Numbered from the stretch's first letter, positions 1,230 to 40,360 are shown. The stretch is 64,000 bases of DNA from Sphyrna mokarran (GCA_024679065.1 JAGIQG010000021.1:30318001-30382000); one strand, 5' to 3'. Translations and numbers: made by a program. The notes: generated by a model not told the origin, from the sequence alone.

Positions 1230-1252
1230 ACTTTCCCTTTCGTTATGATTGG
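1230..1252 (-). promoter_or_regulatory. ISRE/IRF element plus overlapping CCAAT box, gene A promoter
   Basis: actttccctttcgttatgattgg reads GAAAGGGAAAGT on minus. The same motif lies upstream of genes B and C. Confidence 0.7.
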
Positions 1253-1734
1253 ATGTTTGGCGAGTTGGCAAAGAAGAGGGATTAAAAAAAGCCAGATGTG
1301 CCTGATATCACCGACTTTTCCCTTCCAGCCACAAAAGCACATTCAAACGCTGCCAAGTACAGCATTTTTTAAAAACTATTTAAGTAAGGGATTTTTTAAT
1401 TGCGAATAAAACTTATTATCAGTCTTAAGTCCAGGAAGAATTTTTTTTTAATGCAGCGAAGGAACTGTTTCAAACACTAGATGGAGTGTAAACTCAATTT
1501 ACCCAAACTGTGGGATGGGAGAAAGTAGTATAAAAGGGACAGCACATGAGATTTGGGATGATTGAGATACTGATATGGATTGAGAATTTAACAAAGTAGG
1601 AATAAATTAATCATTCTCAGGTTGAAGATTGTAACTAATGGGGTGGGTGGGGGGAGGGACGGTGAACAGAAAGGATCAGCACTTCACTCCCAAAGCATGC
1701 CAGAAACAATCCTTTTCACTATATATTAATACAT

Positions 1735-2060
1735 TCATGGAGTGATAGCCTAGCGGTGTTTATCGCTAGACTATTAATCCAGAAACTCAGTTAATGTTCT
1801 GGGGTCGTGGGTTTGAATCCTGGTGGAATTTGAATTCAAAAAAAATCTGGAATTAAGATTATACTGATGGCCATGAAACCATTGCTTCAGTTATGTCCCT
1901 TAAGGAAGGAAATCTTCCATATTTACCCCATCTGGTCTACATGTGATTCCAGAGCCACAACAATGCAGTTGGTGCTCCACTGTTCTCTAAGAGCAAGTAG
2001 GGATGGGCAATAACTGTTGGCCAGTCAACATCACCGATGTCCCATGAGTGAATAAAAAGT
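1735..2060 (+). mobile_element. tRNA-derived SINE (same family as 63165-63450)
   Basis: A/B-box-like head; shared core gaatttgaattc...agggaaggaaatct...catgtgactccaga...gggcaataa. Confidence 0.65.
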
Positions 2061-2089
2061 GACAACAGTAAATCAAATCAAATTCAGAA

Positions 2090-2930
2090 TCTATATTAAT
2101 GATTTGGATCTGGGGGATTACATTTAACTTTTCAAATTTTTTTAGATGATATGAAAGTGTGAGTTTTGAGGAGATACTTCAAGAACATTTGGAGACGCTA
2201 AGAGGAGACAGCAAACATTTGGCGTGTGGAATACATGTGGAGGCATGTGAGGTTATCCACTTTGGTAGGAAAAATGGGAATAACAGAAATATTTCTTAAA
2301 TGCTGAGTGATTGGGAAGTGTTGATGTCCTTTGGGACCTGCATATTGTTGTTCATAAGTTACTGAAAACTAGCATGCAGGCGAATCAAGCGAGTCGGAAG
2401 GCAACGATACATTAGACTTTTTTTTATTCATTCGTGGGACATGGGCATCGCTGGCTGACCAGCATTTATTGCCAGTCTCTAGTTGCCCTTCAGAAGGTCG
2501 TGGCAAGTTGCCTTCTTGAAACGCTGCAGTGCGTGTGCTGTGGGTTGACTCAGAATGCCATCATGGAGGGAATTCTTGGATTTTGACCCAGCAACTGCGA
2601 AGGAACGGTGATATATTTCCAGGAGGATTTGAGTAAGGGCAATGATGACTTGTTGCAATTATATAGAGCTTTGATGAGACTACACCTAGCGTAGTGGGTG
2701 CAATTTTGCTCTTCTTATCTCAGGAAAGATATATTTGCCACAAAGTAAATGCAGCAAAGATTCACTAGACTGATTGTTGGGATAATGAAATTGTTCCACA
2801 AAGAGAGATGAAATAGACTGGGCTTTTATTCTCAGGAATTTTGAAGAATGAGAAGTGATCTCATTTAAAACACATAAAATAGCACTTTAAAGGGTAGATG
2901 CAGAAGAATGTTGCCAATGGCTGGTGTTTC
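2090..2930 (+). mobile_element. Degenerate CR1-type LINE RT fragment, interrupted by another repeat at ~2425-2625
   Basis: Remnant motifs YINDLD, DDMK, VIHFGRK, LYRALMRLHL, QQRFTRLI. Confidence 0.7.
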
Positions 2931-3214
2931 AAGAACCAGGGCTCTTACCTGAAACAAAAGGAACTTCAACAATAGCTCGGGAAGGCAACACTTTCAAAGT
3001 TAATAGGGAACCATCTACAAGGCACAATGTAGACCATCGCAGACTCAGTGACAATAAGTTGCACTCACCAGGATCAGACTTAGTTAGAAAATCTCCCAAT
3101 GTTGAATAACCTTTTGGCATTCAGAGTCAAAGCTGACAATAGGAATAAAAGAATTTGTTGATAAGTTATCAGATATGGATGAATACCAATGAACAAGGCA
3201 ATAACAAAGATTCC

Positions 3215-3425
3215 AAAACTAGAAAATTCTAGAAAATCTCAGCAGGTCTAACAGTATCTGTGGAGAGAAAACAGATGATGCTTCATCAGAGCTCTGACAA
3301 AGGGTCATCCAGACTCAAAACATTAGCTCTATTCTCTCTCCACAGATGCTGTCAGACTTGCTGAGATTTTCCAGCATTCACTGTTTTTTGTTTCTGATTT
3401 CAGCATCCACAGTATTTTGCTTTTA
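3215..3425. repeat. Palindromic (fold-back) short repeat, probably derived from Penelope termini; relatives near 30500, 41460, 45360 and 52085
   Basis: gaaaatctcagcaggtct..cagtatctgtggagaga is inverted to ctctccacagatgctgtcagacttgctgagattttc. Confidence 0.6.
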
Positions 3426-5804
3426 GGAAGGATTCAATATTTACTGAAAAGGAAAACAAAGGACATATTAAAAGGGAAGCTAGTAACAAAACAATAAGTG
3501 ACGTTGTTATGAAAAATAATCCCCAAAAGTTTGTACTATGAGAATGCATATTTACATTCAAATTCTTAGTAGAGTAGGTATAAATGTGTCATTCGCTTCT
3601 CAGGTCCACCTTGAAAGTACCAATGATTAGAAATATTGGATTTGTTGTTTACGCCTTGTCATGGTATAAATGCTTTGAAATTACTGACACCCAGCATAAG
3701 GCAAGGACTGGTTGGGCTAAGTGGCTGGTTTATACGTCACTTACTTTAACTAATCCTACTTAAGGTCCAATACCAGAATGGCTTGTTGTATTGACAAAGG
3801 GAAGTGTGCTAAATTATCTTTCAGTTAAGAATTATTATTTGCAACACACAATGGGCTTAATGATACAATGATGACTATTTTAGCTTACAATAGACTGCAA
3901 CTGATTCGTTGGAGTTCATCATGAATTATTCCAGGGACCATCAAATGTGACATATTGGAACCAAAACTTGGCTGAAACTCCTCTGTTAGTAATTTCATAG
4001 TACAGAACTTGAGTATTGCTGAAAAAAAACAAACTTTGAAGTTTTTTTTTTATCTTGCAGTCATTAAGATAATGATTTACACTACACAAGAGAATTCTGA
4101 TATATGGAGTCAAATTTTTAAACTCAAATTTTGAATTTGAACAAAAGCTTGGCAGTTAACTGTTCCTTGGTGCATTCTCCATGATAGTGCCTCTAACAAT
4201 TAGAGTCCATAGATTATGAATGTTGCTAGCAAGGCCCATCCCTAATTTCCCCCCGAGAAGGTGATGTTACTGCCTTCTTGAATCACTGAGGTTTATATAA
4301 TGTAGATACACTTCCAGATTTTTGGCCCAGCAACAGTGAATGACTGCCAACGTATTTCCAAGTTAGAATGTTGTGGGCTTGGAGGGGAACTTGCACAAAG
4401 TGAGGGGAACTTCCCTGCCACTGCGACTCTTGCACTTCTCAGTTGCTGATTGCTGGTTTGGACTGTGCAGCCAAAGAGGCTTGGCGAGTTGCTGCAGTAC
4501 ATTTTGTGTATTGTGTCATTGTGTGTCAGTGGTGGATGGGGTGCCAATCAAACAGGCTGCTTTGGCTAATCCAGAAGACTGAAGTAGTAACCCAAAAATC
4601 ATGAGTTTCAAATCCCATCACCACTTAATGTGAATTTTAATTCAGTTAATAAGTAAGCTAGTGCCAATAACATGAGCATTACATTTTTAGACCATTGGAC
4701 AAATCCAGCTGATTCATTTGTGTTGCTTAGCATAAACAGGTAGTCTATCTTGTGGCACTATATGTGACTCCAATCTCACGCCATTTGGTTCACTCTGAAC
4801 TGCCCTACCATCCCAATCAGGTGTGTCAAGCTACATTGGAGAAGATCATCTTCGAATCATCTAAAAATAATTTGTGTCAAATAAATGTAAACAGTGGAGT
4901 AAGTCATCCACTATGATGAGTGCTTGTAGATATACTGCATAAAAAAATAGACTGCATTGGGGTATCTTTGAACTTGTATAATGTTTAAAATGATACTTGA
5001 AACTTGTATATCTGATGTGCGAAGTGTATATTACAAGATGTAAATTTTAAATTTAAACTTTAGAATCAGCTTTGATTTGACACATGTTCTCTCTTTAAAG
5101 GACTTTGGTTTGAAAAAGATGAATGATACAGATCTCCTTTAATTACATTACAGCACAGTATACACTAAAGTATTATTTTACTGTAAAACTCAATGTCAAT
5201 ATAGAAAGGGACTTTGCAAGTTGGTGTCTCCCAGGCAGAATTCAATTTCCCATTGAATTTTTTTTTCTGTCCCTCCCCGCATTTGCCTTTTTTCTGTACC
5301 AAATACCACAGAGAGATTTGTAATGAAGCTACTGTCTGCTCGCAGTAAGATAGATCAATATGGAGTGCAGGATCAGAGGGTTGCTGTTATCATTTGAAAA
5401 TGGCTGTTTAACTCAGCCATTGCACAAAGAATTCATGAATTTGACCAATCACAGAGAGTGGACATGATACTGACTTGCATTGGTCAGTGATAGTGTTCCT
5501 GTGCCTTTCCCATTCTCTCAGTTTTTCAAGCTTTCTGCTTCCAAAGATTCAATCAAAAAAGAAACTCAAATGTTTTTGAATCACTACACCACTTTCTTGA
5601 TGTGAAGTTAAAGTTAATCCTAAAAGGCCCTTCCCTGCTTTATGTTCCAGGAAGTACTATGTATCAGATATCGGATTGGTTCAACATTGATAGTCATGAC
5701 AGGAATTGAAAGCATTAGTTACCCAAAGTTTATGAACATTGAACTCCAATAGATACTTTCATACAATTAGTGTTTTTTTAATATAAATGAACTTCAGTTA
5801 ATTT

Positions 5805-6128
5805 TCATAGAATCCCTACAGTGTGGAAAGAATCCTTCCAGCCCATTGCGTTTGTACCAACAACAATCTAGGAACACTGAACACCCTACGCCCTATCTCC
5901 ATAACCCCATATATTTATGCTGCTAATCTCCTTGACACTAAAGGCAATTTACCATGGCCAAACCACCTAATCTGCATATTTTTGGAGTGTAGGAGGAAAC
6001 CAGAGCACCTTGGAGGAACCCCACACAGGCACAGGGAGAATATGTAAATTCCTCACAGTTAGAGAAGTTTAGAATTGAACCCAGGTCCCAGGCACTGTGA
6101 AGCAGCAATGCTAACCACTGTGCCACCA
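5805..6128 (-). mobile_element. HE1/V-type SINE
   Basis: V-domain core ggaggaaacc..gagcacc..gagg..accca, tRNA head, LINE-like tail. Confidence 0.8.
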
Positions 6129-8231
6129 TGTCATCCTTTCGATGTTGAAATTGAATGTTACAATAGGACACTACTTTGATGTATATACTGCACTTAATGT
6201 AATTAAAGATGATCCACGCTGTGGGAAAATCACCACTCAGAGTCAGATTTAAAGATTCAACATGCAGTTTATCAGACAAAGTTTTGGGAGAAGCACTGGG
6301 ATCTCCACAGTGCTTGCAGTCACCTCCTCAATTTTAAAATGGCAGCTGAGCTTTTATACATTTTCAAATAGTGGACAAGTACGGATATTAGCTTTTAGCA
6401 CATTGTTATATATTTATGCTCTTCTTTCAACGACTGGTCTTGTTAACAAAACTCATTGTTTTGGTTCTGTCTTATCTCAAGCTAAGGTGATCATCTGGAC
6501 ATCAAAATCTGATTTATTTCCAGTAGTAATTAGACACTAACAGAATTTAACTCATTATGCAATGTCTGCACCTCGATCAGCACATCTTAATGTCTTTTCA
6601 TGGAGTCCATTTTGTGCCAGGTAACCATCTTGTATCTTTTAATTTTGGGTTTACTCCAACAATCCATATTGTTTACCTTTTTATGACTCAAAGCCTTTGA
6701 AGAAGAAATACGTACTGAGTATAGCTGGCTGCAATACAGAACATATATCAGAGCCATCCCTGAACTGTCTCAAAGAAAGAATAAGTTTTCCTGTTGTAAT
6801 GAACACTCTAGGTGAGGTTCCTATCTATTTGTACACACTGAGTCATTCAGGTCAGCAGGAGGAGCTAAGGCTCGTTTACCGGCAAACCATTCACTGACTA
6901 TTTTCCGAGAATAATTCTAATTGCATTCCCATCTGAAAATCTGTCATTAACTTCACAACTAATGAAAATAATCTGTTTATTCAGGGATTGGAAACTCTGG
7001 CTGGACAAGTTTGTAAAGCAACATAAGCAGCCCAAGAAAATTGGATGTTCGTGCTCCTGCCTTGCTGTAATCAATTTCTCAGGAATATTGCTGAAAGATA
7101 CCATTGGCGTAGATAAAAAGAGATTTCAGTCATGATGATTGAGATTTGGAATTAGCAGAAGGGGCAGGAGGGAAGGACGAGTGGGAGAGGGGGAGGGGAG
7201 ATGGGCGGCGGCAAGGAATTCAGGATTTGTCTATCAATCTTCTAACAGTAGTCAGGACAATACATAAATAAAGAGATCAGGGATTCATGGAAAAAAAAAG
7301 TTAATAGAAAATTTTCATTTGCTCAGGGACTGACTAAAGCACAGCAGTAGTAAAGGGAATTATAATTCTAGAATGCATTGGGGATAGTTTTCTTAAACAA
7401 TCGAGTGACATCTCCTGGATTGGGACTTCACCCAGTTGCCAAGATTTTTCATGCACACTTTAGCTTTGTCATGTAATTTCTTGGGAAAGTGAGCTGCTAT
7501 TGTTCCCCAGGAGAGGTTTTCGAAACTTGTTCAAAGCAACTCTTTCATGGCCTCCAGCATTTAAAACTGAGTTTGGCAACAAGGCCAAATCTGAAAACGT
7601 TTCATTGTTTTGTGAGTTCTGAATCTCGTTTAGTTTTGAGAGATGTTCATGTCAAGCTATTTCAGGACAGTTTCAAGGAATCCTATTACAGCCAGTAGCC
7701 TATAACCTCACCTTGAGTCATGCCAAGAATGCAGCAACTCCTTTTGTAAGCCCAGTGGTATTTCCTCATGGCCGAGTTACTTATCTGTCCAATAAGGCAA
7801 GGAAATTTAAAGCAGAGAAGTGGCAGATAGGGATTTAACAGACACGAGAAAATGTAATTGCAGCACATAAGAGTATATGATCAAGTGTGAGACCAAGCCC
7901 AAGATGGGGTGCAATGCCTTATCTTGTCAGCTTGGATCTTGTATGTCTCTTTTGTGTGGCCACGAATTGGACTCAGTTTGAATTTGGTTTTTGGAGCAGG
8001 CAAGGAGATGGATTTGGGTTTGCCTGGTCCACTCTGAGCATTGGTTTTGTAACCTCAAGAACACAGTAAATTTAAAAAAAATGCCACTTATATTGGTTTG
8101 GGCAGAGGACTGGAATAATATGCTTGGTAGTTCAATAAACTGGAAATGTCGATATTACCACAAATCTTTGTTCTTAACCTTTTTCCCTGTCATACACCAC
8201 TATGCAATTCTATCTTCACCTTCTTTTTAGA

Positions 8232-8530
8232 GTGGCACTATGGCACAGTGGTTAGCATTGCTGCTTCACAGTACCAAGGACCCACATTTGATTCCCAGCT
8301 TGGGTCACTGTCTGTGCGAAGTTTGCATGTTCTCCCAGTGTGTATTTTGTCCATGAGTTCCGGTTTCCTCCCACAGTCTGAAAAATGTGCTGGTTAGGTG
8401 CATTAACCTGGCTAAGTTCTCCCTCAGTATATCTGAACAGCTGCAGAAGTGTGGCGACTAGGGGATTTACACAGTGACTTCATTGCAGTTTTAACATAAG
8501 CATACTTGTGACTCTAATAAATAAACTTAA
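8232..8530 (+). mobile_element. HE1/V-type SINE
   Basis: tggcacagtggttagc head, V core, taataaataaac tail. Confidence 0.8.
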
Positions 8531-11490: not shown

Positions 11491-11574
11491 CTGTTAAAAT
11501 GAAATGAAGGAAATGATGAAACTAGTAACAGAAAGCCTTTGAAAAAAAATTCAGACATTTGAAATTGCACCTAC

Positions 11575-11603
11575 CATTGGCATTGTTGACTCCCTTCGAA
11601 CTA
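11575..11603 (-). CDS. Gene B cytoplasmic exon (VVRRESTMPM)
   Basis: Acceptor tttctcttctgttttactttcag, in frame with the TM exon. Donor ATG|gtaggt; read-through instead gives ...VGAISNV* ending at 11551. Confidence 0.7.
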
Positions 11604-12076
11604 CTGAAAGTAAAACAGAAGAGAAACAATTAATTCATTATTTCTAGTACATAAAATTTGAATTTACATCTCCAGCTTTAGAATACTTAGTCCATTATTT
11701 CTCGTAGTTCCAAAATTCCTAATCGTATCAAACATAGCAATCTCTGTTCAATTATGATGATTTTATCATTTATAAACAATGCTCATATTTTGACTAATTA
11801 ACACTTGAAGAGTTTCTCCAAATCATTTGTCCAATGATTTACAAAAATAATCTGATAAGAAAGGGGATCCAAAACAAATGCAGTCACCTATCTACCTTAC
11901 AATTTTTCTTCTTCCGACTTGACTCGGTGTTTATGTGGTGGTCACATTAACAAACTATTCAAGAAATTGTTCTAGCAATCCCCAGGGCATATGTTCAAAT
12001 CCCATATCACAGCAAAAGAATATTAATTCATTTTTTTTTTAAAAGGAACATCGGTATTTATAACCCTCACAGTTTC

Positions 12077-13787: not shown

Positions 13788-13934
13788 CTGTATATAAATT
13801 TCTTCTGAATCGAAAAATTGTCAAGATGATTATTCCAACTGCAAGTGCTCCAACAATGACAAAGACAGCCGTGAGAACCTGAGTCTTTTTTTCTTCACTT
13901 TGCTGGTCAGTATTAGGTTCATCCAAGAGGGGAA
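13788..13934 (-). CDS. Gene B stalk + transmembrane exon
   Basis: Acceptor cttttcag, donor gtatga, 147 nt, phase 1-1. IPLLDEPNTDQQSEEKKTQ-VLTAVFVIVGALAVGIIILTIF-RFRRNLYT. Confidence 0.9.
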
Positions 13935-14222
13935 CTGAAAAGTTGGGTGGAAAAATTTAATTAATTGCAATCTCCAATTTCAACCTTTGCATGTATAATA
14001 ATGATGGTATTAATCATAAAGGGACATGAGTTGGAGTTGAACTGCACAGAGGGAAAGGATGGCAGCAGTTTAATAAGAAGCCACAAAACCTTCTCAAGAA
14101 AAGATGATTACAGGTGGTAAATTAGATTTTGTGGCATTGCACTCATCTTCAACACAAGAACAAAATCAATTCTTTAAGCACTTATTTTCTGACACTGTTT
14201 TGGATAAAAGCTATGAACGTAC

Positions 14223-14519
14223 TTGGAAAATGCTTTTTAACTTCATATTCACGTTCTTCCACGTTCCACACAGCACAAGTGTAATTGCCTTCCAAAGCAC
14301 TGTTTGCAACTATGATCGGAAGAGAACTGGTGATCTTGAACAGCCCCTGTGGGGTCTTTATATGATCTGTTTTAGCACGAGAGGTGAGGTTTGTTTTGTC
14401 ATAGACAAACCAGTGAATCTCAGAGAGTGGATAACCAGTTGTTTCACAGATGAGGTCTGTCATTTTCATCCTTCTTGTGACATTGGATGCCAACATCATT
14501 TTTGGCAAACTGTATGGAG
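14223..14519 (-). CDS. Gene B Ig C-type domain exon (PD-L1/PD-L2-like)
   Basis: Acceptor tgtttttag, donor gtacgt, 297 nt. APY...LICETTGYPLSEIHW...TPQGLFKITSSL...GNYTCAVWN. Confidence 0.92.
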
Positions 14520-14974
14520 CTAAAAACAAATTACACTTTTATTAATGTAATAAGAGAGAGGCACAGAAGAACATAAGAGCAGTTTCTCCACTTACTCCAT
14601 CAGCCAGCAATACACAACAACAATAATATGATAGCAGTAGGGATTTAATTTATTTACTTAAGGTGACATATGTGTAGGGGTGAAAAAAATACTTAATGGT
14701 TCAAATTTGGGATTTTGATCTGATTTCTGAATATGTGAATTCCAAACTGTTTAGAATACATAGCAAATATGAATGTGCATCAAATATGATTATCCTATTT
14801 ACAACGTGGCCATCCAAATTATTAATACACCTCCTCTAACTTCAGTGATTAAAGATGTTTCAAAGATATGAAAGATTTTCTAAAAATGCAAAACCATGAT
14901 TCCTTCTCTCAACATGACTCTTGTTATAATTTACTGTATGCCTCACACATGTCAAGCTTTTAGGTAAGTTTGAG

Positions 14975-15270: not shown

Positions 15271-15360
15271 GCTGCACCATGCAAACAAAATAGGAATTTG
15301 TTGCTAATTAAAGGCAACCAATAGAAGCAAAAATATCAGGAAAAGAATACTGTTACCCAC

Positions 15361-15687
15361 CTTTAACCTTCAGTGTGATGAACTTATTGTCATATCCAAC
15401 CCTTGTTTCCAAATAATAAATATAATTCCCTTCATCTGTCAGTTGTGTTTTCTGGATTAACAATGATACATCATTTGAATCCGGATGAATTATTATAATT
15501 CGATTATGAGGTTGTTTGGCACCAGCTTCCAAATGGAACATGGGTCTTGGTTTTCTATCTTTTTCAATTTTACTCAGTTGAATGCGAATATATGTTTGTA
15601 CTATTGATGATTTGATTGAGCATGTTAGTTTAGTGTCTTCATTTAATATTCCTGTCACTACATCCTCACAATCTAACGTCACAAAGC
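15361..15687 (-). CDS. Gene B atypical Ig V-domain exon
   Basis: Acceptor tttttcag, donor gtgggt, 327 nt, phase 1-1. SFVTLDC...LTC...DVSLLIQKTQLTDEGNYIYYLET...FITLKVK. Confidence 0.92.
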
Positions 15688-15777
15688 CTGAAAAACAAGA
15701 ATTTCCATTAGTTCACATTGCCTGAGTGATAATCGGTGTTCAATGAAGTATAAATTGAGTTACACTCCAGTACTTAC

Positions 15778-15844
15778 TCTGTGCAAAGGCTGGATTTGTG
15801 CATACGATGATATTAAGGAAAATTATTGCACAATGTAAACCCAT
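15778..15844 (-). CDS. Gene B signal-peptide exon (coding part; exon 15778-15862)
   Basis: MGLHCAIIFLNIIVCTNPAFAQ, donor gtaagt, 90-nt intron. Confidence 0.9.
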
Positions 15845-16199
15845 TACTGGAATTCAGTTCACCTGCTAATATGAAGATAATAGAGAAAAATCACTAAAAC
15901 ACAAGGTTGAGTTTGTTTCAGTGGATCATGTCTTGTTGAAAGCGGCAGACTAAACTTGCTTTGGTGGGCAATGGGACCCAGGCATGGAACATTTTGCTGG
16001 ACTATCCAGTTAACATCATTTGAGGATAGAGGCCTGATCCTTTCATTCCTTCCTTTCCACCATCCCCCACCCCATCTCCTGCCCTCCCCTCCCCCTGTCC
16101 CCTGCCCCCGCCCCCCCCCAAACCAATTCAAGACCTGGTAACTCAGCAGTGTAGGCAGTGCCACTAGTAGTAGTGGCTGTCTCTTGAAGAAGGGGGCAC

Positions 16200-16410
16200 T
16201 TCAATGCCAAAGATTCGTGAATGGAATTGGCTGCCGTCGGAGGTTGTTGAGGCAAACTCGCTGGGGTCTTTTAAAAGACTTCTGGATGAGTATATGGAAA
16301 CAAACAGGATAGGGGGCTATAGATAGGTCTGTGGATTGGTAGATGTGATCGGCGCAACTCGTGGGCCAAAGGGCCTGTTTGTGCTGTATTGTTCTATGTT
16401 CTATATTCTA
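16200..16410 (+). mobile_element. CR1-type LINE 3' end in gene B intron 1
   Basis: gggccaaagggcctgtttgtgctgtattgttctatgttct tail. Confidence 0.7.
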
Positions 16411-16824
16411 GATCAGCAAGCCCCAGCAATGAGAGGTAAACACAGCTGGGGGGGCTGGGGAAGGGGTGGGGGAGGTGGATTATTCCAGCAGCACCCTTTG
16501 GTGTGTGGAAAGCCATTTCCACTAAGTAGCCTTTACAAACCCCATTGAGCTCCCTTCAACTTTGTAACAGCCTCTCTACAGGAACTGGTTGGTAAAGTCT
16601 GATGATTTCCCCTTACAGCAGCAAGCAACCCCCTCCCCTCAGTGCTGATCAGGTGGGATTGGACCTGCCCCTTTCCTTCCCCTCCCCCACACAACATTCC
16701 CCCAAATGAGCACTCACCTTTTAACATCATATGAGTTCATGATTCCAATTGAAGTAATTGGATTGGCACTTCAGCAAAACAAGTGTGCAAGACAATGGCA
16801 ATAATGAGGTTAGTCTACAGATTG

Positions 16825-17409: not shown

Positions 17410-17660
17410 CTTTTGTATCCAACAATACGCAGACGTTCAACTTGTCCGGCACCAAACGGTGGTTCAAACTGACCCAAGAGAAATCACCATACAAAATCCC
17501 ACACTGACTGCGAGTGTCCCGGGGATCCGGACTCCGCTGGACTCGGAACCGAAAGCTGGGATCTGCAGGGAGAGAGTTGTGACAGCCGGCTCTCGATCTG
17601 TTGACCAATCTGCGAAAGTATTGACAACAAACGGCGAACAAAGGTTATCTCTGCAGTTCT
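17410..17660 (-). other. Gene B probable non-coding first exon; upstream boundary approximate
   Basis: CpG-rich, homologous to 871-1125, conserved donor AAAG|gtacag. Confidence 0.6.
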
Positions 17661-17749
17661 TCTACCGTCTTCCTTGTCTGTTGGAATTGAACCCAGCGAA
17701 GAGCTAGCTGAATCTCCCAGATTTTTTTTTTCTCTCTTCCTTGTTTCTT

Positions 17750-17772
17750 ACTTTCTGTTTCAATATGACTGA
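17750..17772 (-). promoter_or_regulatory. ISRE + AICE1-like composite element, gene B promoter
   Basis: actttctgtttcaatatgactga. An NF-kB-like gggaattcc lies at 18087-18095. Confidence 0.7.
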
Positions 17773-18354
17773 CTAACAGCAATTCGGGTTGGCAAATACC
17801 GAGTTTCAATCGCCAGAAAAAGGGGAACAAATTTATCTGAGCGGTCTGTTTTCACAGAACTTCCCCAGCAACACTGCTGTTGCGTAGACTTGCAACTGTC
17901 AAACGCTTCGTCTTTGCTATCCTTTCTCACAGACCATTTCAGGAAGTAATCGGAGCAAAGGAATGTGTGAAATCTAGCATTGGAAATTGAAAGTAGCTGG
18001 GAAAGGCCAGATTTGCTCTTCCAGCGTCTGCACGTATTTTCCCTTTGTTACTCTCTCCGGAAGATTAGCTCTGAAATATTGGCTAAGGGAATTCCAAATA
18101 ATTTATTTTTAGCTCTTTCTATTAATCCAAGTTTATATTGTCTCACCTCTCTTACAACAGAAACCCCCCCTCCCCAGTAGAATCTGGAGATGAACAACAC
18201 CAATTAAATCTATCTGCACTCTCAGATCTTAACGTGAACTTCCTGTTCTTTCCTCCTGCAAAAGTATACTTTATTCCTATAAAATCAGAAGGATACATTC
18301 CAAAACATTTCAAATTATTATTACAGTAAATAGCAATAGTTTTCACACTCCCTA

Positions 18355-18640: not shown

Positions 18641-18929
18641 GGGTTCAATATCAAATAAAATATTGATATTGTGCTGTATTGTTCTATGTTCTATATTCTA
18701 GATCAGCAAGCCCCAGCAATGAGAGGTAAACACAGCTGGGGGGGCTGGGGAACCTGATGTTGTGAGACTTCCCACCGTGCCACCCAGAGATCAAGATCTT
18801 CTCTGAAGTGCTTCAGTTCAGTAATGACAAAATTACAATCATTTCAATATTTTCACAATTCTGTTCAAACTATATACATCTGGCATGTTGCATTCTGATG
18901 TGCTGCAATATATTTGCATAGAATTTCAA

Positions 18930-20000: not shown

Positions 20001-20009
20001 AAGTGACCA

Positions 20010-24400: not shown

Positions 24401-24402
24401 AA

Positions 24403-27697: not shown

Positions 27698-28517
27698 GGG
27701 GATGTTTTACTCTGTTAAAGGGACAATATAAATGTGAGTTGTTTTTCGTGCTGGGCAAACATGATACTGACATTGGGAGAAAACTGGACTGGACTCAGCT
27801 ATAACCATCTTATTTTCATATAAGCTGCCTATATTTAATGTGAAAAATAGTCACGGTGACAGGTGCAATTTTACACTCTGAATTTAATAGGAGTGGTGTT
27901 TATAATACCTGAAGGGTTGGTAGAGAACATATCCTTGCTGATGTCGGCCATCCCTCAGCCATTTAACAAATGTTAATTAGCTGGAGGTGCGGCTTCCATT
28001 TTATCACTCAGGAGGAAATCTTGCATCAGAGAATGGTTGGCCAAGCTAATTGAGACGTCAACAGCTGGGAAGACAGGGAGTCCCCAGTGTCAAACCCTGG
28101 AGCTAGATGCAGGTATGTACTGGGGGGATTTTTAGCTGAGAATGCAAAGGGCATCTCCAAGGTGATCAGGAGAATTTGTTAGAGAGGATGGCGGGGGCCG
28201 GGGGGGAGGAACAAACAAGGGGGAGAGAGGGAAGGCCCTGGGTGAGGGAGAGCCCAATATGGAAAGGGTGACAGAGAGATAAATCGATTTATTTGACAGG
28301 CCACCCAATCTTCAAACCTGCCCTTAAAGAATGGTTAAATTCTACTCCATTAGTCAAAGGAAGAAGAGTGGTTAGGAAGGGGTGGAATGGGGGGAGGGGG
28401 TGGGAGGTGGGCTTTAATGTTGCTTTGGAAAAGGAAAACATGATCTTGGAAAGGTCCTCAGCAAAAATAGCTATGTCATTGCCCTTATTTGAACTAATAT
28501 TGTACCTTAAGACATAC

Positions 28518-28658
28518 GATTTCTCCAGTAAAAGAACACCATCATTACCAAAAGTGCGAAAATTACGGCAAAGGACAGAGAGAAATAAACACCAACAGGT
28601 CTTCTCATTTTTGCTTTTTGTTGCTGATAGTTTCCTTCCATTTTAGGATTGTCCAATA
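28518..28658 (-). CDS. Gene C stalk + transmembrane exon
   Basis: Acceptor gccatttcag, donor gtatgt, 141 nt, phase 1-1. VLDNPKMEGNYQQQKAKMRRP-VGVYFSLSFAVIFALLVMMVFFYW-RN. Confidence 0.88.
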
Positions 28659-29851
28659 CTGAAATGGCAAGCATATAATTGGCATATTTAATTACAATTG
28701 ATATCATGTACTCCAAGAGCTTTACTTAAAACATCTTTTGTGTAAGATAGGATGGAGCAGATTACATTAATTTATGAGATCATAGTGCCATGGATTAAAT
28801 AAATTATACAGCAATGACTTAGTTATATAATTGTGCCTAAATGCTTCCTTCAGATGATTAGACATTGCCCTTGGCCAAATTGTCAGAATTAAGTGGCACT
28901 CAATGAATAGGAATTAGTTATGTTCATTTTGGATTCAGTAAACAGGAAAAAAATGACAGATAATGTCAACTGCAGATTGGGTTTCAGCAATATTATCATC
29001 TTGCAGTAGGACATGCCAAGTGGAAACAGGGACTTACTGCCTCAAGTGCAATGAGGAGCAGAAATGATGTAACAATTTAACTAACAGCTCAGATTTTAAA
29101 AGAATGCTTGTCATCTAAAATATTCAATACTGTCCCTATCATAAAAGAAATTTAAAAATATACATATTGTGCAGAAGTATGTTGATAGGTTTTATTCAGA
29201 ACAAAGTATAATAGACACTGGAATAAAAACAGAAAAAGCTGGAGAAACTCAAGATCTTGTTCAGAAGAATTCAAGTAAAAAGCCGAGGAAGTATTCTGAA
29301 TTAAAGGGACAGCTGCAAAAACGAGACTTAAAGTCAGCTAGGTGAGAAGCTAGACGTACAATGTAGATCAAAAATTTGGTGGCACCTTAAACCAGCCTGT
29401 GAAGCAATGGTGTTCTGTTGGCAAGGTGTGGGAGCTTGAATGCAAGTGGCAAATCCAAGGCATATCAATGTTGAGATATTGAAATGCTGGAGATGGATCC
29501 TTGGTGAAAACATCCGAGAGAATGTTCTGCTTCGGGCAAGATTTCAGATATGTTCTTTGAAATGGGAGTTTGGAAACCCTCATATGGACATCAAAGTTCC
29601 AATGAGGCCAGTTGGTTCAGAGTGTGACAAGCATTTGAAGTGGAATTTGATGAGAAATCTACAGAAGTTGTTCTGGGTGGCATCAATCACTTGATTTCAG
29701 AGTGTGGTTTGTCTGGCCACAATTGGCCTGTTGATTTGCACAAGAACATTACAGAGTCTAAGATAAATTTACAATTTATGTTATTCTTACAAATCTCTAT
29801 AAATCTGTAAAAGGTAGAATTGGCTGAATGAATAATGTATTATAGTTAACA

Positions 29852-32168: not shown

Positions 32169-32423
32169 CTGCAGATGTGCATGCATTTTCAATGCATACA
32201 GAACAATTGTAGTTTATGTAATGCTGTTCATCAATGACTGAAATGTAAGAAGTGATGTTGTACAACTTATCTTCCATTTGTATTATGCTGGAATTAGCAT
32301 TTAAATTCGTTCCATTTTTAATCTGCCAGTGAAGTTCTGCCAAAGGATACCCAATTGTAGTACAAGAAAGACCTTTCTCACCACCTCGGTTGCTTTTGGT
32401 GACTTGAGGTATGGTATATCTGG
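32169..32423 (-). CDS. Gene C Ig C-type domain exon (short, PD-L-like)
   Basis: Acceptor tgttttcag, donor gtaagt, 255 nt. ARY...LSCTTIGYPLAELHW...EDKLYNITSYI...NYNCSVCIENAC. Confidence 0.92.
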
Positions 32424-33454
32424 CTGAAAACATGTTTCACAAGTTTAATCTTGCAACTCCAAGTTAGTGATGTACAGCTGGATTTAATAAGACCAATACC
32501 AATCATTCCAATAGCACCACAAACATTGTAGGTTGAGTTTCCACTGATTCATGATGACATCTTTAAAAATGACAGGCGGGACCAATTCTGGGATTTCCAA
32601 TCCTATCTCTGGGCTGTCTGACTTCCAGAAGTGCCTTTAAAGGATGCTGGCTTATGGCGTCAAACATTGACAGCTGCAACTCCCCATTCATTGTGGAGTT
32701 CAACACATCCTAGTCCTCCAACATACTCATGGAGCTGGGCACAGTCTTTCATGAGTTATTGTTCATCCCCTTCCAAGGTTTCCTCATGAACCCTACCTTT
32801 CACAAGGAGACTTTTAAAAAGGTGATTGCTAAAGATCCTCTTCAAGCTCTTTGTAATAAACTATGCCCCTGCACCCACCCTCATGGCTCCTCATTGGCCC
32901 AATGCCAAATCATGGCAAATTACCCATCCCGATGGTCCAATTGTTCCCATACACCTATGTCAACTTTTGTCTCTTCACTAACTCTCAAGGCCCCTGGTGT
33001 CCCCTATGCCAAGCTATGGTACTGCAATGCTTATTGACCGATTTATAAACTATATAGTACAGCAATGAGCCCTATAATGACAGTAGGATGTGTAAAATAA
33101 GCTTTAAAAAATTCATTCATTCGTTACTTTCTACTCTATTAAGGAAGTCACATTATGACAAGAGAATAAAAATATCAATCAGTAAGACCCTTTAAAGTAT
33201 CAATAACAGAAAACACAAACTCTTTAAACTGCTTAGCTTTCTGTAAGAAGAAAGAAATTGACCACATAGATCAGAGTGCTGGAGCTATCGTTTAAGCAAT
33301 GTTTTCTCTGGGATGCAGCTATTTAAGAAGTGTAATAGGACTTCTTCTGTTTGCAACACATGTTCATGATGTATGCTTGGCTAATAGTCCAGACATCCAT
33401 TACTCTGTAAAGATCCATTATCCTTGAATGATGCAGTGAACGCAGGTTCTATGT

Positions 33455-33650
33455 CAGATTCCTATTTATTGACTACAGATCAGCCTTCAACACCATTATT
33501 CTAATGAAACTCATTCCAAACTCCTTGGCCTGGGCCTGGGCTCTTCCTTTGTGACTGGATCTTGAACTTCCTAACTCACAGACCATTATTAGTTAGGGTA
33601 GGCAACAACACCTCCTCTACGATCATCCTCAATACCGATGCTCCACAGGT
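33455..33650 (+). mobile_element. Rex1-type LINE RT fragment (another on minus at ~45530-46050)
   Basis: DY.SAFNTII..KL..LGLG.SLCDWILNFLT.RP motif; second fragment has MKCFKRLVM. Confidence 0.65.
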
Positions 33651-34215
33651 GAATGCATTCTGTGTAGAAATATTGGGATAATAGGTCTAAATTTTCATTC
33701 ATGAGGTTGGCAATGGGATTGGAAAAATTCATGGTTCAGCAAGCCTGCCTCTGGAGAAAGTGCCAGCAAGGCAAGATCTTCATTGGTGGATGGGTGTGGG
33801 CTGAAGTTGAGCCAGCTGACCCAGGAGAAGCATTTTCTGGAAGCAGGATGTTTAAAAGACCTCACCAGTACCTCAGCCAAGGTGGTTGTTTGTTATTTGT
33901 GAATCCTGGAAGTAAATTATGACATGAGTTTCAACTACTGGGACCTTAGAACTTAAGGTAGTATTAGAATTAACCAGAAACAGGGATTCTGTCTGATTTT
34001 ATGCTAACAACAATATAGCCAACTTCAACCATACATGGCAAGCAATGTTAAATTAACACAAGTATTTATCTATCCTTTGGAACATGAGACCATACTGACA
34101 CAGAAAAGACCAATATAACAAATATTGATGTAACTCTATTAGTTTTAATCTTCAATGCCTGATGTGAAATATTCTTGTACTGTCCTGGGGATAAAAAGGG
34201 ATTTTCTTTACCTAC

Positions 34216-34527
34216 CTTTAACAAAAAGTTCTATATCTTCTTTTTTATAACCAAATTCACAGTTTAGGAAAAGCTGATATTTCCCTTCATCCAAAATTTC
34301 CGTTTCCTCAATTATCAATTTTACAGTTCCTGAATCTGTGAGACATCTTCTTCGTCCCAGGGCATTTGCTTCTTCTTTGGGTGTACATGAGATTTCAGTA
34401 TCATTCATGAGAATCGAAATACTGTTACATTTTTTGTTCTTTATTAACGTGTACTGACAAGTCAAAACAGTGCGCTTGTTATGGATCCCTGTGACTGGAT
34501 TCTTACAATGGACAGTTACAAATGAAT
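34216..34527 (-). CDS. Gene C atypical, Cys-rich Ig V-domain exon
   Basis: Acceptor tatttatttcag, donor gtaggt, 312 nt, phase 1-1. DSFVTVHCKNPVTGIHNKRTVLTC...VKLIIEETEILDEGKYQLFLNC...IELFVK. Confidence 0.9.
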
Positions 34528-34629
34528 CTGAAATAAATATAATGATCTATTAGCACTTATCCTTTAAAGTATAGAAGCACAAAATAGAAACATTGAACAT
34601 GACAGAAGTTATATATTGGTATTACTTAC

Positions 34630-34702
34630 CACCAGCTACAATAGTCACAAAGAAGGAAACCACAATAAAACAAAGAATTTTTGGAAAATGGTAAGTAGCC
34701 AT
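34630..34702 (-). CDS. Gene C signal-peptide exon (coding part; exon 34630-34725)
   Basis: MATYHFPKILCFIVVSFFVTIVAG, donor gtaagt, 102-nt phase-1 intron. Confidence 0.88.
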
Positions 34703-35146
34703 TCTTTTCCAGGACTTCCAAGAATCTGTTTAAAATATTGGAATAACTCATTACTGGCACATAATAAATTTTGGGGACATTTGTTTTGCACTCAAATGCC
34801 ATATTTATTTGGCACACTTAATTGAGACTGGGTGGTCACATTCCTGAGTCTTGTGTTCAAAATTTACACGGTTCTTGTGTTCAAGCACTTACATGCACAT
34901 CCTACTTGTGATCTGAACAGTGTAGTCTCCACTTATGCTTATGCTGCCATCAGAACAGCAGCCTGAAACATGGACCACAGATTCCAGCTCAGGATTTTTT
35001 ATAATTGGCTAAATTGATAAGCATGACCTTGGGAAGAGATGGTAATATTTGAGGCGAGTGACTAAATAAACATTGCAGTTCACAAAAGTGTGAATAATTT
35101 GACTCCAAGTCCTGATGAACGAGATAGTCCCGAGGTAAAGAATCTA

Positions 35147-35972
35147 GGGGCGATCTTACCGCTTGTCACAATGGTCAATCAGCAGGGCAAGCCAATAAGA
35201 TTGCAAGAGAGGCAAAGAAAACGGGAAGGGTGCAAGGCTGATGTAAATATTTCAATCTGCATTTCAATGATATTAGTGAGCCCAGGACAGAATTGTTCAG
35301 GCTTACTTGCCTTAACAGCTACAGAGGTGTAGGTCCTCCCTGGCAAGGATCACCAGAAATGGGGACCAGCTGTGATGGCCTGTGTGACTGGAGGCTACTG
35401 AGACCCCTGATGTGGTTGGGGAGTGAGGGAACAATCATCCTTTGGCAGAGCCAGCCTGGCTATTGGGGCAGCAATCAGCTGGGAGGCAGGAAATGGAGGT
35501 GGCAATCAGCCAGGGGTGGGTAGATGGGGGTGGTGCTCAAACAAGGAAGCCAGTGATCATCCAGGGAGGACAGGGATGGGTCTGAGTTCAGTGATCATCC
35601 AGGAAGGCAAGCAATCAAGAGGAGAAATCAGACATCAGCTGGGGAGGCCAGTGATCGAAGGGAGTGGACAGTGATTGGCCAGGAGGGCCAGCGATCATAG
35701 TTAGAAGCCAGCAATCGAGAATGGAGTCCAGCAATCATTAACAGATCTCTCCAGCACACAGTGCATTCAGAAATCAAAGTGTGTGCGCAATAGTGCTCCT
35801 CGCAGTCAACAGCTGGCTTCCTGATGAGAATAGATTCCGTCCACTCCCCTTACTGTCGTGAATCACACTTTGCCTCTCTTTTTGCAGTAAGTGCCCATGT
35901 GATTGCATCTGTGCGCTTATCCAAAAAATGGATGCGACTTTCTCCTGTTTGTTCAGCAATTAAAATCGTCCC
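35147..35972. mobile_element. Non-autonomous Harbinger-like DNA element
   Basis: Imperfect terminal inverted repeats ggggcgatctta / taaaatcgtccc, similar to the TIR at 49069/51895. Confidence 0.5.
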
Positions 35973-36654
35973 TTTATTTCTTTGTGGTGGTAGTCGCAAT
36001 CTCAACAGTTTTCACATTATAAATTATTAATTATCATGGCTAAACTAAGAGACTATTCATAGTAACATTGGTTGGATGTTCTCCATTGGTTTTATTATAT
36101 ATTTTCTTGTGCAAAAGTGTTTATTAAGTAATGCTTATAGAGCTTCAAGTTAAACAATAGAGCACTATATGCAAATACATATTGATTTAATTTCAGTTGT
36201 CTAAAATAATTAAATTAATACTGGTGTTAGAATTTCAGAGGGAAAAAGTTCACAGAAATCCAAGTGTTGAAAGGCTGCACACCATTGTAATTTTCCTCAG
36301 TCACAAACATTTGAGTTCAGCTGTTAGATTTTATCTTGAACATTTATAGTGGTAACTTGCACCATTTCACTGAGAGCAGATGCTGGAAATCTATTTATTA
36401 GAACCTCATATTTTTAAAAGCTTTCAATGGAAATAAGGGACTTTTTGTACAAGCATTTAAAGAAAGTAAGAATGGCTTAAAGTAATTTGGATCCCTTAAA
36501 GAGACAGGCAGATAACATTGTAATTAAAAATTGGGAAATGACAGACTCCTTAATTATTTCCTTTGCACTGAAGTTGACAGGAGAGGAAGATGACAAAGTG
36601 CCAGAAATATGAGAAAATTGAGGAAAATGGACAGCGATCAGTCAGGGGAGGGAT

Positions 36655-36952
36655 TGATGGCAAGTGGTTTGCACTGCTGCTTCACAAAGCCAGGCATCCA
36701 GGTTCAGTTTCTGGCTTGGGTCATTGTCTGTGTAGAGCTTGCACATCCTCCCTGTGTCTGCATGGTTTTCCTCCAGGTACTCCAGTTTCCTCCCACAATC
36801 CAGAAGCTATGCAGGCTAGGTGGATTGCCATGCTAAATTCTCCCTCAGAGTACTTGAACAGGCACTGGAGTGTGGCAAGTAGAAGAATTTTCACAGTAAC
36901 TTCATTGCAGTGTGAATGTAAGCCTACTTGTAACTAATAAATAAACTTTAAC
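36655..36952 (+). mobile_element. HE1/V-type SINE
   Basis: Head, V core and tail. Confidence 0.75.
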
Positions 36953-37289
36953 ACCTAAAGCCAAATCAAAGGAAGGAACTTTGTGAGATTGCCCCATATT
37001 CTTCAACACTTTGGATCATAAGAATCTATCAATCACCCTTCAAAATATACAATTAGTATATCAATTGCCATTTGCAGAAGATGGTTCCCAACAGTACAAC
37101 ACAGTCACACACTCATATACATTTATGTTTAAATTTCATCAGCACTGCTATAGTTAAAGAAAACGTGATCAGGCAACTTTCCATTAAATTAATTTTAACC
37201 AATTATCGGTCCTTAAAATTTGCCATCCCTTTATACTTAGTGTACTGCACTTGTATGGGCCCAAAATCCTTAATCTTGATGGTCTGGGT

Positions 37290-37770
37290 CACTTGAGTTC
37301 TAGTATAGGTTAGGTCTGGAATGGTTTAGTTCTGGTATGAGTCAGGTCTGGTATTGGTCAGGTCTGGTATGTGTCAGTTCTGGTATGGGTCAGTTCTGGT
37401 AAGGGCCAGTTCTGGTATGGGTTAGTTCTGGTATGGGTCAGTTCTGGTATGGGTCAGTTCTGGTAAGGGCCAGTTCTGGTATGTGTCAGTTCTGGTATGG
37501 GTCAGTTCTGGTATGGGTCAGTTCTGGTATGGGCCAGTTCTGGTAAGGGCCAGTTCTGGTATGGGTTAGTTCTGGTATGGGTCAGTTCTGGTATGGGCCA
37601 GTTGTGGTATGGGTTAGTGCTGGTATGGGTCAGCTCTGGTATGCGTCAGTTCTGGTATGGGTTAGTTCTGGTATGGGTCAGTTCTGGTATGAGTTAGTTC
37701 TGGTATGGGTTAGTTCTGGTATGGGTTAGTTCTGGTATGGTTAGTTCTGGTATGGGTCAGGTTTGTATGA
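37290..37770. repeat. 16-bp minisatellite (tggtatgggtcagttc)n, about 29 copies, in gene C intron 1
   Basis: Direct inspection. Confidence 0.92.
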
Positions 37771-39299
37771 CTGGAGAATAGGCAAATACCAATATTCCAG
37801 GACAATGGAGGGAAATGGGATATCATGTAATGTTTAGACTGGCTGAGATCACCTGATCGTGGGAGGGGTAGGACAGGGAGACATATTTTCCAGAATTTCT
37901 CCTGCTCATTTGAATCTGGGTTTTATTGGGTAGATTGGATGATTGGGGGAGATGGGGGAGGGGTAAATGATGAGTGAAGGGCAGGAGGTGATGATGAGGG
38001 GGATGATGTGTAGGGGGTTGATAAGTAAGGGAGGAGGGAAGGAAGAGGAGGAGGGGAATGAGGAGTGAGATAAGGAGGGGGGTTTAGGAGGGGGGGTGAG
38101 GAGATGTGGATCAAAGGGGCTAAGGAGGAGGGTAGATGAGGGAAGGAGGGAGGTAGAAGGGGAATGGGAGAGGGTCATGGGTATTTTATTCATCCCAGTT
38201 CTGCTTCTACTCAAAATGGAAATGAAAACCAGGCAGGATATATGACAGACTACTGATGTTTCCCACTCCCAGAAACACCCAGCAGCTCTGACAGAATCTG
38301 TGGAGAAATATATCAGCTCTGTGACCTCTTATCAGATGTTGTAAGCAAGAAGATTAGAATTTATGTGAGCATTTTCCTTCTGTCAGAATGATAAACATGA
38401 AATAAGAAGATGGATGAGCGCACACATAAATTATGCAACACACATACACACACAGACTATGGAACACATGAACACAAATACACATACACAAACTACACAA
38501 CGCACACACACAAACTACGCAACACACACACACACACCCACACATACAGAGGGGGGCAATCTTACCAAAAACACTCTAAGGACTGCATGAGTGTGAAAAT
38601 GGAAGAAAATCTCATATTTTTTTGACCAGCTTCCAGGCACAACTGTATGGCACTTAGAAAAAAAAGAGCCAATCTGTGATTCTTGCCAGCAGAGGGAATG
38701 GGTAGAGCCTATTCACACAGAAAACTGGCTGCTGATATCGTGGGGTGCCATTGTGCGGGTGCCCCAATCTTCCACGTGCACAAGAGATCTGGCACTCCTC
38801 CCACCCCCTGGACATCATTCCCTCTGTCATGGTCATTCTCCACCCACAGCCCCATCGTCACACCACCCCCCCCCCCATTATCCTCATCATCAATCTGCTG
38901 CCCTGATTGATCATAAAACCCCCATCACCTGATCAACCAATGACTCAGCCAATTCTCAATCCTCCAGGATCGTAAAGCAGTGTACCCCTTCCCTCTTCCC
39001 CATGGAACACCCTCTGCCTTCTCCATCATGGCCCTACTCCCTTCAGGATCCACTCACTCAGGCCATGTCCCCTTTCAGCCATGCCCCCTTATGGCCTTGC
39101 TTCCATGACACTGCCTAGTGCCCAGTGGGCAGAGGACAAGGTACCTAGTGGGCATTACTAGGGTGCCAGGCTAGCAGTGTGAAGGTGCCAAGCTAGCCAT
39201 GCCAAGTTTGCAATACCCAAGAGGTGTAAAACTGAGTGTGAGCTTAATATTTCACCTCTTGCCCAATCTTACTGGCTTGCCACATCAATTGACATCACT

Positions 39300-39640
39300 C
39301 CCAAAAACTACACAAAACACAGACACACAGACGACACAAAATACACACAGAAACTACATGCACACACACAAACTACACAAAACATACACAAAAACTACAC
39401 AAAATAGATACAGACAGACTACACAAAACACACACACACACCAATAGACTATACAAAACACACAGAAACAACACAAAATATACACAGACTACACAAAACA
39501 TAGACTGCAAAAACACACAGACTACACAGAACATACATACAGACTACGTGCAACAGAGAACACAGAATATACACACACGAATTACAGAAAATAAATACAG
39601 AGATTACACAAAACACACACAGACTACACGGAAACACTTT
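39300..39640. repeat. CA-rich low-complexity repeat (also 38420-38548)
   Basis: actacacaaaacacacag-type units. Confidence 0.8.
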
Positions 39641-39699
39641 TTTTTGTACCTGGGGTCTGAAGAAGGTTCTCTTTCACTGAGAAGTGTGCTTAAAAATGA

Positions 39700-40360
39700 A
39701 AGCGATGCCTCCAAGGACCGGGATCTTAAGTGAAAGGGGAAAAAAACGGCATTGAGCAAATTTAAATAGTTTGCCAGATCTATTTATAGCAACAGCCGGA
39801 ATGGCTTCGCAAAACCTTCGACAGCGCCACTTTATGCAGATATTGAACTCAATGGATCATTTTATAAACGTAGTTACAGATAGACCGAGAATTCAGAATT
39901 ATTTACTGAAAAGAGCAGAAGCAAATCTATTACCCAAAATGGTAATTCAGGGTTATTTCACCTTATATTATTTTGCCATTCTGGAATCTCTGGCATAGGG
40001 ATATAACCCGAGGAATAATAGACTCTCAGTAAACGGCGATGCGGCGATCTGGTCGCTGCTGTCCTTTCTGTTGATATGTCGAGATTATTTTCGAACATTC
40101 ATCCTTACTAATCTCCCACCGAAATATAAAATTAAAACTGCGTGGGAAATTAGAACGATACAACTTTTGGTATCGTTCCTGACAGCATTATCAAAACAGG
40201 GAATTTATTCTTGCCCGTCCTGTTCCCAGTTACTGTTAAGACTTTCTGTTTCGTTATGAGGTACATAGGCCAGCTGGATTTAATCACTATTAGAAATCAT
40301 CAAACGTGGGCATGATACTCCCACCAATACACAGTTATTCCAGGGGTTTCCCAACAGGAG
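39700..40360 (-). promoter_or_regulatory. Probable gene C promoter/first-exon region: ISRE at 40241-40259, NF-kB site at 40343-40352
   Basis: CpG-enriched unique sequence; actttctgtttcgttatga matches the A and B promoters; ggggtttccc fits GGGRNNYYCC. The exon-1 donor was not pinned down. Confidence 0.65.

Follow-up and report, generated by a model that had tools for sequence, protein, structure and literature searches.

A shared 19-bp ISRE-like element upstream of three B7-fold immunoglobulin genes in the CD7–UTS2R interval of Sphyrna mokarran

A 64,000-nucleotide stretch of Sphyrna mokarran DNA (GCA_024679065.1 JAGIQG010000021.1:30318001-30382000; hereafter the window, with positions counted from its first letter) carries three immunoglobulin (Ig) genes on the minus strand, designated A, B and C, with ATGs at 529, 15844 and 34702, respectively; in every one, separate exons encode the signal, IgV, IgC and transmembrane parts. 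A 19-bp element upstream of each gene is probably a proximal IRF-binding interferon-stimulated response element (ISRE), the three B7-fold genes, placed between CD7 and UTS2R, being likely co-orthologs of SECTM1; interferon would co-induce the cluster, and its products would engage CD7. A sequence-only reading of the window had located the three 19-mers at 1230, 17750 and 40241 in one orientation, and both the positions and the common orientation were verified. As all three genes lie on the minus strand, the element stands upstream of each, 5′ of the non-coding exon 1, and reads in gene sense TCATA-NN-GAAA-NN-GAAAGT. The three copies, recognized by their sequence, are as follows.

1230..1248, minus strand: element A, TCATAAC-GAAA-GG-GAAA-GT, an ISRE core with the 5′ TCATA extension
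17750..17768, minus strand: element B, TCATATT-GAAA-CA-GAAA-GT
40241..40259, minus strand: element C, TCATAAC-GAAA-CA-GAAA-GT

On the minus strand the element takes the form TCATA-NN-GAAANNGAAAGT, in which a conserved extension precedes a canonical ISRE core on its 5′ side, and its GAAAGT end is IRF1/IRF2-like. The copies differed only in two spacer pairs, namely the 2-bp spacer and the two bases beside the first half-site, which left 15 of the 19 columns identical and agreed with the earlier statement that spacer positions alone vary. The canonical ISRE is given as GAAANNGAAA in PMC6954429, and this core was present in all three elements. Like known ISRE/IRF-E promoters, these have two perfect half-sites with a 2-bp spacer, apparently near exon 1 and in a TATA-less, CpG-rich setting, and they are unlike them in the GT end, in lacking the 5′ G of the ISGF3 consensus (PMC6954429) and in the invariant TCATA extension. 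The CpG-rich DNA that had been described just past the element was found at C (observed/expected ratio 1.07) and B (0.85), and weakly at A (0.53). Element B lies 43 bp from the end of a spliced gene B contig, an end that only hints at the transcription start. The match to the core in all three copies, the apparently proximal position and the retention across an old paralog split supported the assignment to ISREs, and the same sequence features support the proposal that A, B and C would be interferon-inducible together.

An alternative put forward with the ISRE was that the element is AICE1, an AP-1/IRF composite element for IRF4 or IRF8 with BATF-JUN, in which case it would direct dendritic-cell or lymphocyte expression, not interferon induction. 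The spacing of 4 bp between the IRF half-site and the AP-1 half-site TGA (TTTC-N4-TGA) was exact in all three copies, the TGA was invariant, and gene B was indeed one mismatch away from TGASTCA, the AP-1 heptamer that the AICE1 consensus requires. The full heptamer was absent from all three elements (3, 1 and 2 mismatches in A, B and C, respectively), leaving the IRF-proximal TGA as the only part kept, and no perfect AICE1 occurred in the 664 kb scanned. Since the distal AP-1 half is unconserved, yet the second GAAA half-site is invariant though AICE1 does not need one, AICE1 was rejected as the shared logic of the three promoters, and we consider this explanation quite improbable.

Companion sites differed among the three promoters. 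The two NF-kB-type (kB) sites proposed at 40343 and 18087 fared differently: the first fits GGGRNNYYCC on the minus strand, and the second is one base off.

40343..40352, minus strand: kB consensus site GGGAAACCCC, a GGGRNNYYCC match 84 bp upstream of element C
18087..18096, plus strand: weak kB-like site GGGAATTCCA, which departs from the consensus at one base and lies ~320 bp upstream of element B

No kB site was found within 600 bp near gene A. A gamma-activated-site-like (GAS-like) sequence, TTCACAGAA, occurred at B only and the consensus kB site at C only, with neither at A. These differences favour a rival explanation in which the element is a working IRF site with a basal or cell-type role (IRF2, IRF8 or Blimp-1 repression), or one that differs among the paralogs, so that no co-induction follows. 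Gene B was also abundant in run X2 (contig depth 338), a run whose treatment is unstated, and the elements depart from the ISGF3 consensus. Two perfect half-sites near the start are the usual build of interferon-stimulated promoters, and such half-sites, apparently proximal, are present here; moreover, the mammalian gene in the same chromosomal slot is interferon-induced. A basal role without co-induction therefore appears unlikely.

Other GAAANNGAAAGT cores in the window were located at 17983-17994 (+), 54451-54462, 57184-57202 and 58530-58541, the first of them in the opposite orientation and 220 bp upstream of element B. A fourth look-alike, CCATAGC-GAAACAGAAACT, lies 46 kb upstream of C in the opposite orientation (L014:2894-2912 (+), G000:C783:30404894), accompanied by three GAS-like sites and, ~100 bp further along, a kB-like site; no gene was found alongside, and it is possibly an enhancer or an unannotated interferon-stimulated promoter.

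The age of the element would follow from that of the genes. C-type and B-type proteins are ~30% identical, and in a 37-row tree, rooted for drawing only and with four long branches, the C clade comprised 8 shark rows and one ray row with support of 100/99. Because this clade includes a ray, the C/B split predates sharks and rays, whose separation dates back roughly 250-300 million years. Both gene types are on one chromosome in several sharks, and the Mustelus trio has adjacent accessions. Gene C had no other non-repeat DNA similarity to A or B (blastn, E<1), as had been claimed, and between A and B the stretch from exon 1 to the element aligned poorly, so that the element stands out there. 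That 19 bp survived since the old paralog split while the rest of the promoter fails to align argues for selection, and the element would have been kept since a single ancestral gene while the rest of promoter C diverged. DNA contigs from three other organisms (runs X6, X16 and X20; ~9% divergent) span element B, and none of the 40 differences listed, out of 167, fell inside it; this was not counted as conservation.

We then asked how often such a match arises by chance. The consensus pattern with at most 2 mismatches gave 4 matches versus a mean of 0.32 in 100 shuffles, none of which reached 4, the pattern having been built from the sites themselves. In a three-way comparison of 601-bp windows placed by the analyst around each element, with 300 shuffles of C and 300 real stretches from the flanking 264 kb as controls, the top 19-mer was the element; none of the 300 shuffles and 2 of the 300 real shark stretches attained its 15 identical columns. 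The element was also the top local alignment of C with A, with a score of 31 equalled by 0/300 shuffles and 5/300 real stretches. The same held for C and B, where the score was 28 (6/300 and 3/300, respectively). Scanning of 664 kb returned 95 GAAANNGAAA cores, 10 GT-ended GAAANNGAAAGT cores and 5 cores with TCA four bases ahead, and all three elements belonged to each set; at a core density of 1 per 7 kb, a given 120-bp upstream stretch would carry one in ~2 of 100 cases.

Genome-wide, the exact 19-mer pattern occurred 10 times versus 3 for the reversed control, which indicates that a few matches are expected anyway, and 7 of the 10 fall outside the cluster. These outside sites, together with the 2 of 300 real stretches, are what speaks for a chance match or a functionless repeat remnant, one of them (L024, G000:C783:27746913) being a 22-bp exact copy of element A in CpG-poor DNA 2.6 Mb off on the same contig; neither a family match nor a CpG island was found within 40 kb of it. 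Six of the seven, all except L031, lie in CpG-poor DNA, and within 3-kb loci none showed a family gene or, apart from that 22-bp copy, flanks in common with the cluster beyond dispersed repeats, so a repeat origin was rejected, as was the idea that the exact 19-mer defines a regulon across the genome. With orientation and apparent proximal position the same in all three genes, chance or a repeat remnant is highly improbable as an explanation of the match.

The identity of the genes is suggested by their chromosomal position. The neighbour of A ~44 kb downstream, encoded on the same strand, is CD7, with a V-set exon at L006:5627-5965 (-), a transmembrane exon at L006:1780-1920 (-) and a tail at G000:C783:30266468. 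CD7 was the only single-domain chain among the 60 PDB rows listed for the V exon, aligned over the whole length (query 3-109, E 2.4e-9), with multi-domain antibody constructs ranking above it by summed score; the YEDM in the shark tail is presumably the CD7 motif. On the other side, UTS2R (L074:2853-3992 (+), an intact single-exon open frame of 380 amino acids) lies ~307 kb upstream of C (E 1e-114), followed by CYBC1 and NARF, which we take to be the human order. Genes A, B and C thus occupy the CD7–UTS2R interval, the slot of mammalian SECTM1, which is placed between these two genes in human, mouse and rat (PMC4603632). Mammalian SECTM1 is induced by IFN-gamma/STAT1 (PMC3769348, PMC9932126 and PMC8515872), and an ISRE was predicted by software in the mouse Sectm1a promoter (PMC4257532).

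The proteins have the B7 build, signal-IgV-IgC-transmembrane-short tail, and B7 relatives are their best matches, variously labelled in databases as PD-L1-like, PD-L2-like, CD276 and ICOS ligand. The sequence-only reading had compared the cluster with interferon-induced mammalian PD-L1; the apt comparison is instead with SECTM1, the interferon-induced CD7 ligand whose slot the genes occupy. A and B share PD-L1 (CD274) and CD276 domain order, and so does C, and these are the best solved relatives by sequence; the shark genes are unlike them in lacking the canonical B-F disulfide in IgV and in having other neighbours, and shark PD-L1 is a separate protein. Comparison by eye confirmed that catshark PD-L1 XP_038660173, published in the supplement of PMC12151841, is not the catshark relative XP_038633137; on this ground, and since the F-strand Cys is replaced by Tyr in A and B and by Leu in C, identity with PD-L1 was rejected. 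The predicted gene B IgV fold is a confident V-set sandwich (predicted local distance difference test, pLDDT, 92.5), whose top VIA structural matches were tied and picked no family: B7-H6 with Z 14.9 (root-mean-square deviation 2.0, 109 aligned), VSIG4 with 14.7 and nectin-4 with 14.6.

SECTM1 is described as having Cys38/Cys55, no B-F disulfide and the motif GxYxWxLxGxQ (PMC4603632). In the shark IgV domains a Cys pair 16 apart (17 in SECTM1) was invariant in 25 of the 25 rows of alignment A3 and falls on model strands 3-6 and 22-25, and A, B and C all lack the F-strand Cys, with the F-strand of A and B reading GxYxYxL. A tally of 99 relatives 180-560 residues long, which includes isoforms and two PD-L outgroups, gave Tyr (34 rows), Cys (33), Phe (10), Ile (6), Trp (5) and Leu (2) at the F-strand Cys position, with 9 unread; the Trp rows are from coelacanth and read GxYxWxL or GxYxWxI. 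Human SECTM1/K12 and mouse Sectm1a/b therefore resemble the shark genes in the CD7-UTS2R slot, the N-terminal Cys pair, the missing F-strand Cys, the pattern G-x-Y-x-aromatic-x-L, local tandem duplication and the interferon theme, and differ in that the shark genes add an IgC domain, carry Tyr or Leu for Trp and miss the motif G/Q, and in that SECTM1 was published as eutherian-specific. Teleost zgc:174863 and unnamed coelacanth and sturgeon genes were recovered by the family profile and have the same Cys pair. Because the six-residue motif and the one-domain build are lacking and the comparison was by position and hallmarks, the shark genes are not filed as SECTM1 proper; from these sequence comparisons, A, B and C are likely B7-fold genes in the SECTM1 slot that are co-orthologs of SECTM1.

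The pairing with CD7 was assessed by structure prediction. The predicted complex of the CD7 V domain with the gene B IgV domain scored 0.43 versus 0.17 for the best control, with runs agreeing in at least 94% of contacts and partner pLDDT of at least 82, and without use of the alignment. Of 78 solved pairs, 51 attained the passing mark for complexes, as against 2 of 108 mismatched ones; passes at 0.60 or lower comprised only 5 of the 78 solved pairs, yet all 4 passing mismatches (of 180). For eukaryotes, the mark was attained by 39 of the 65 solved pairs that lack a like complex and by 2 of the 126 unrelated pairs. Among blind neighbours, 7 of 44 passed. The pass may reflect memory if a CD7-SECTM1 complex is already solved, and the model lends weak support to CD7 binding by gene B.

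Several observations weigh against the interpretation of the cluster as interferon-induced SECTM1 co-orthologs. The detailed ISGF3 consensus WBVGGAAANNGAAACT, whose full form occurs in <1% of IRF9-dominant regions (PMC6954429), was missed at both ends in all three elements, which have a C or T preceding the first GAAA and finish in GT on the 3′ side. A and B are alike in blocks of 73-82% DNA identity (exon 1 73%, signal-IgV block 82%) and so count as one lineage; being non-independent, they leave the element test really spanning two lineages. Transcript support is limited to gene B and comes from a run only guessed to be RNA, with a contig end that is not a start site. IFN-gamma alone raised mouse Sectm1a just 1.21-fold in vascular muscle cells (PMC4257532). 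As to identity, the top solved relatives by sequence are CD276 and PD-L1; the F-strand Cys is retained in the 33 of 99 rows counted above, many of them bony-fish relatives; the GxYxWxLxGxQ motif is incomplete, A, B and C matching it at 3 of 6 positions and the coelacanth proteins P0079 and P0173 at 4 of 6; all three shark genes have IgV plus IgC versus the single Ig domain of SECTM1; and the 42-kb and 307-kb gaps are only partly annotated. The proposed homology with SECTM1 is one of position and hallmarks.

The same points bear on a rival in which the regulation is as proposed and the genes form a separate fish B7 lineage of the zgc:174863 type, lost in mammals, with SECTM1 having arisen independently in the interval. 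The two Ig domains and the best matches to CD276 and PD-L1 favour it, as do the BLAST-level searches that, in PMC4603632, found no SECTM1 outside eutherians and led to its description as eutherian-specific. SECTM1 was not among the matches listed in PDB sequence, Foldseek, VIA and Atlas searches, whose libraries may not contain it, and no SECTM1 cluster was among the Atlas matches listed. Zebrafish zgc:174863 is listed without a readily predicted human or mouse ortholog (PMC7720500), and no interferon data for it were present in the main text of bioRxiv 10.1101/693333, the supplements of which may list it. Under this rival, however, the slot, the rare Cys layout, the coelacanth Trp, the interferon theme and the weak CD7 complex pass would all be coincidental, and we judge it rather unlikely.

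In the preferred explanation, that of an ISRE-controlled cluster of SECTM1 co-orthologs, interferon would activate STAT1 and IRFs; an IRF dimer, presumably of the IRF1/IRF2 type, would occupy both GAAA half-sites at a distance of 40-120 bp from exon 1, on its upstream side, with the TCATA extension read by a second factor or by an extended IRF contact. A, B and C would rise together on myeloid or epithelial cells, and their proteins would engage CD7 on T and NK cells. The element would have been inherited from a single ancestral gene, and eutherian SECTM1 would be that gene with its IgC exon lost. The CD7-SECTM1 pair and its interferon control are then probably far older than placental mammals. 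A wider proposal, which we hold to be evenly balanced, is that CD7 and SECTM1 are a linked B7-type ligand/V-domain receptor pair of all jawed vertebrates, SECTM1 being a B7 member minus IgC, with a proximal ISRE and a partner-read TCATA retained since before the shark-ray split.

An ISRE in an immune promoter is ordinary by itself, and its significance lies in the genes that it marks. If they are co-orthologs, CD7 and SECTM1 are to be counted among the B7-type co-stimulatory systems as a pair that dates to early jawed vertebrates, a zebrafish candidate (zgc:174863) is gained for a system whose receptor CD7 is a target of chimeric antigen receptor T cells (CAR-T), and the labels PD-L1-like, CD276 and ICOS ligand would be corrected across sharks, rays and coelacanth. 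The common element would be an independent regulatory character matching the known interferon response of SECTM1. No literature tying SECTM1 to fish genes was found in a search that left most subscription journals outside and whose shark/coelacanth part was not restricted to SECTM1; the main text of PMC13262535 contains neither SECTM1 nor CD7 as a whole word.

The structures of the three genes are listed below.

871..1175, minus strand: predicted non-coding exon 1 of gene A, donor 871/870, 5′ end inferred by alignment to gene B
463..550, minus strand: exon 2 of gene A, signal peptide, ATG 529, 3′ end approximate
56..372, minus strand: IgV exon of gene A, ends approximate
1.4-2.1 kb left of the window: IgC and transmembrane exons of gene A
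17410..17707, minus strand: non-coding exon 1 of gene B, covered by the depth-338 contig of run X2, in which exon 2 follows directly on 17410
15778..15865, minus strand: exon 2 of gene B, signal peptide, ATG 15844, 3′ end approximate
15359..15687, minus strand: IgV exon of gene B, Cys pair 16 apart, no F-strand Cys
14212..14520, minus strand: IgC exon of gene B, approximate
13788..13934, minus strand: stalk and transmembrane exon of gene B
11560..11625, minus strand: probable last coding exon of gene B, a weak tblastn match (E 0.28)
39962..40200, minus strand: predicted CpG-rich non-coding exon 1 of gene C, from CpG content, candidate donors 39962 or 39650
34631..34725, minus strand: exon 2 of gene C, signal peptide, ATG 34702, 3′ end approximate
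34214..34531, minus strand: IgV exon of gene C, approximate
32170..32433, minus strand: IgC exon of gene C, approximate
28510..28719, minus strand: stalk and transmembrane exon region of gene C, tblastn span

The run X2 contig on 17410-17707 carries 119 extra letters that match exon 2 at 15865, which gives a splice from 17410 to 15865 with a GT donor common to A. Spliced in this way, the contig indicates transcription of gene B exon 1 as far as 17707 or beyond; the organism code of the run is the same as that of the best DNA holder, and its RNA nature was guessed. The signal and IgV exons with their intron are 82% identical between A and B (1-684 versus 15304-15985), and the IgC exons are 50% identical as protein; in Mustelus, the IgV domains of A and B are closer to each other than to their orthologs in the Sphyrna mokarran stretch. 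These sequence comparisons suggest repeated gene conversion of the ligand domain in A/B. Ray, coelacanth and bony-fish members of the family (P0042, P0046, P0016, P0017, P0079 and P0081) carry additional Ig domains or repeats of them, with as many as nine stretches, and the domain number is therefore labile in this gene family.

Beyond the cluster, a second CD7-like V exon, 71% identical and with a frame change near the F strand, was found at G000:C783:30215202-30215649 (-) (L036); no transmembrane or tail match was found for it, and it is either a pseudogene or an artefact of assembly. Short CSNK1D motifs had no match in the 664 kb, HEXD was not returned by PF00728, and FASN is on the same contig at a distance of 5.5 Mb, so that gene order beyond CD7 is either rearranged or incompletely resolved. 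A long exon at G000:C783:30031448 (-) (L054), which we take to be SEPT9-like, lies beyond the CD7 genes where human CSNK1D would be expected and suggests a local rearrangement there. A Pfam scan of 125 flank open reading frames, chosen by composition from many more, returned the CD7 V exon and retroelement pieces only. An open frame of 243 amino acids at 40771-41502 (-), starting ~500 bp upstream of element C, had no Pfam match and presumably resembles a Penelope-type retroelement end. A perfect 84-bp direct repeat (16379-16462 and 18669-18752) flanks exon 1 and the promoter of gene B, and a NAGNAG tandem splice acceptor is present at exon 2 of both B (15863-15868) and A (548-553), of which the X2 contig takes the upstream TAG.

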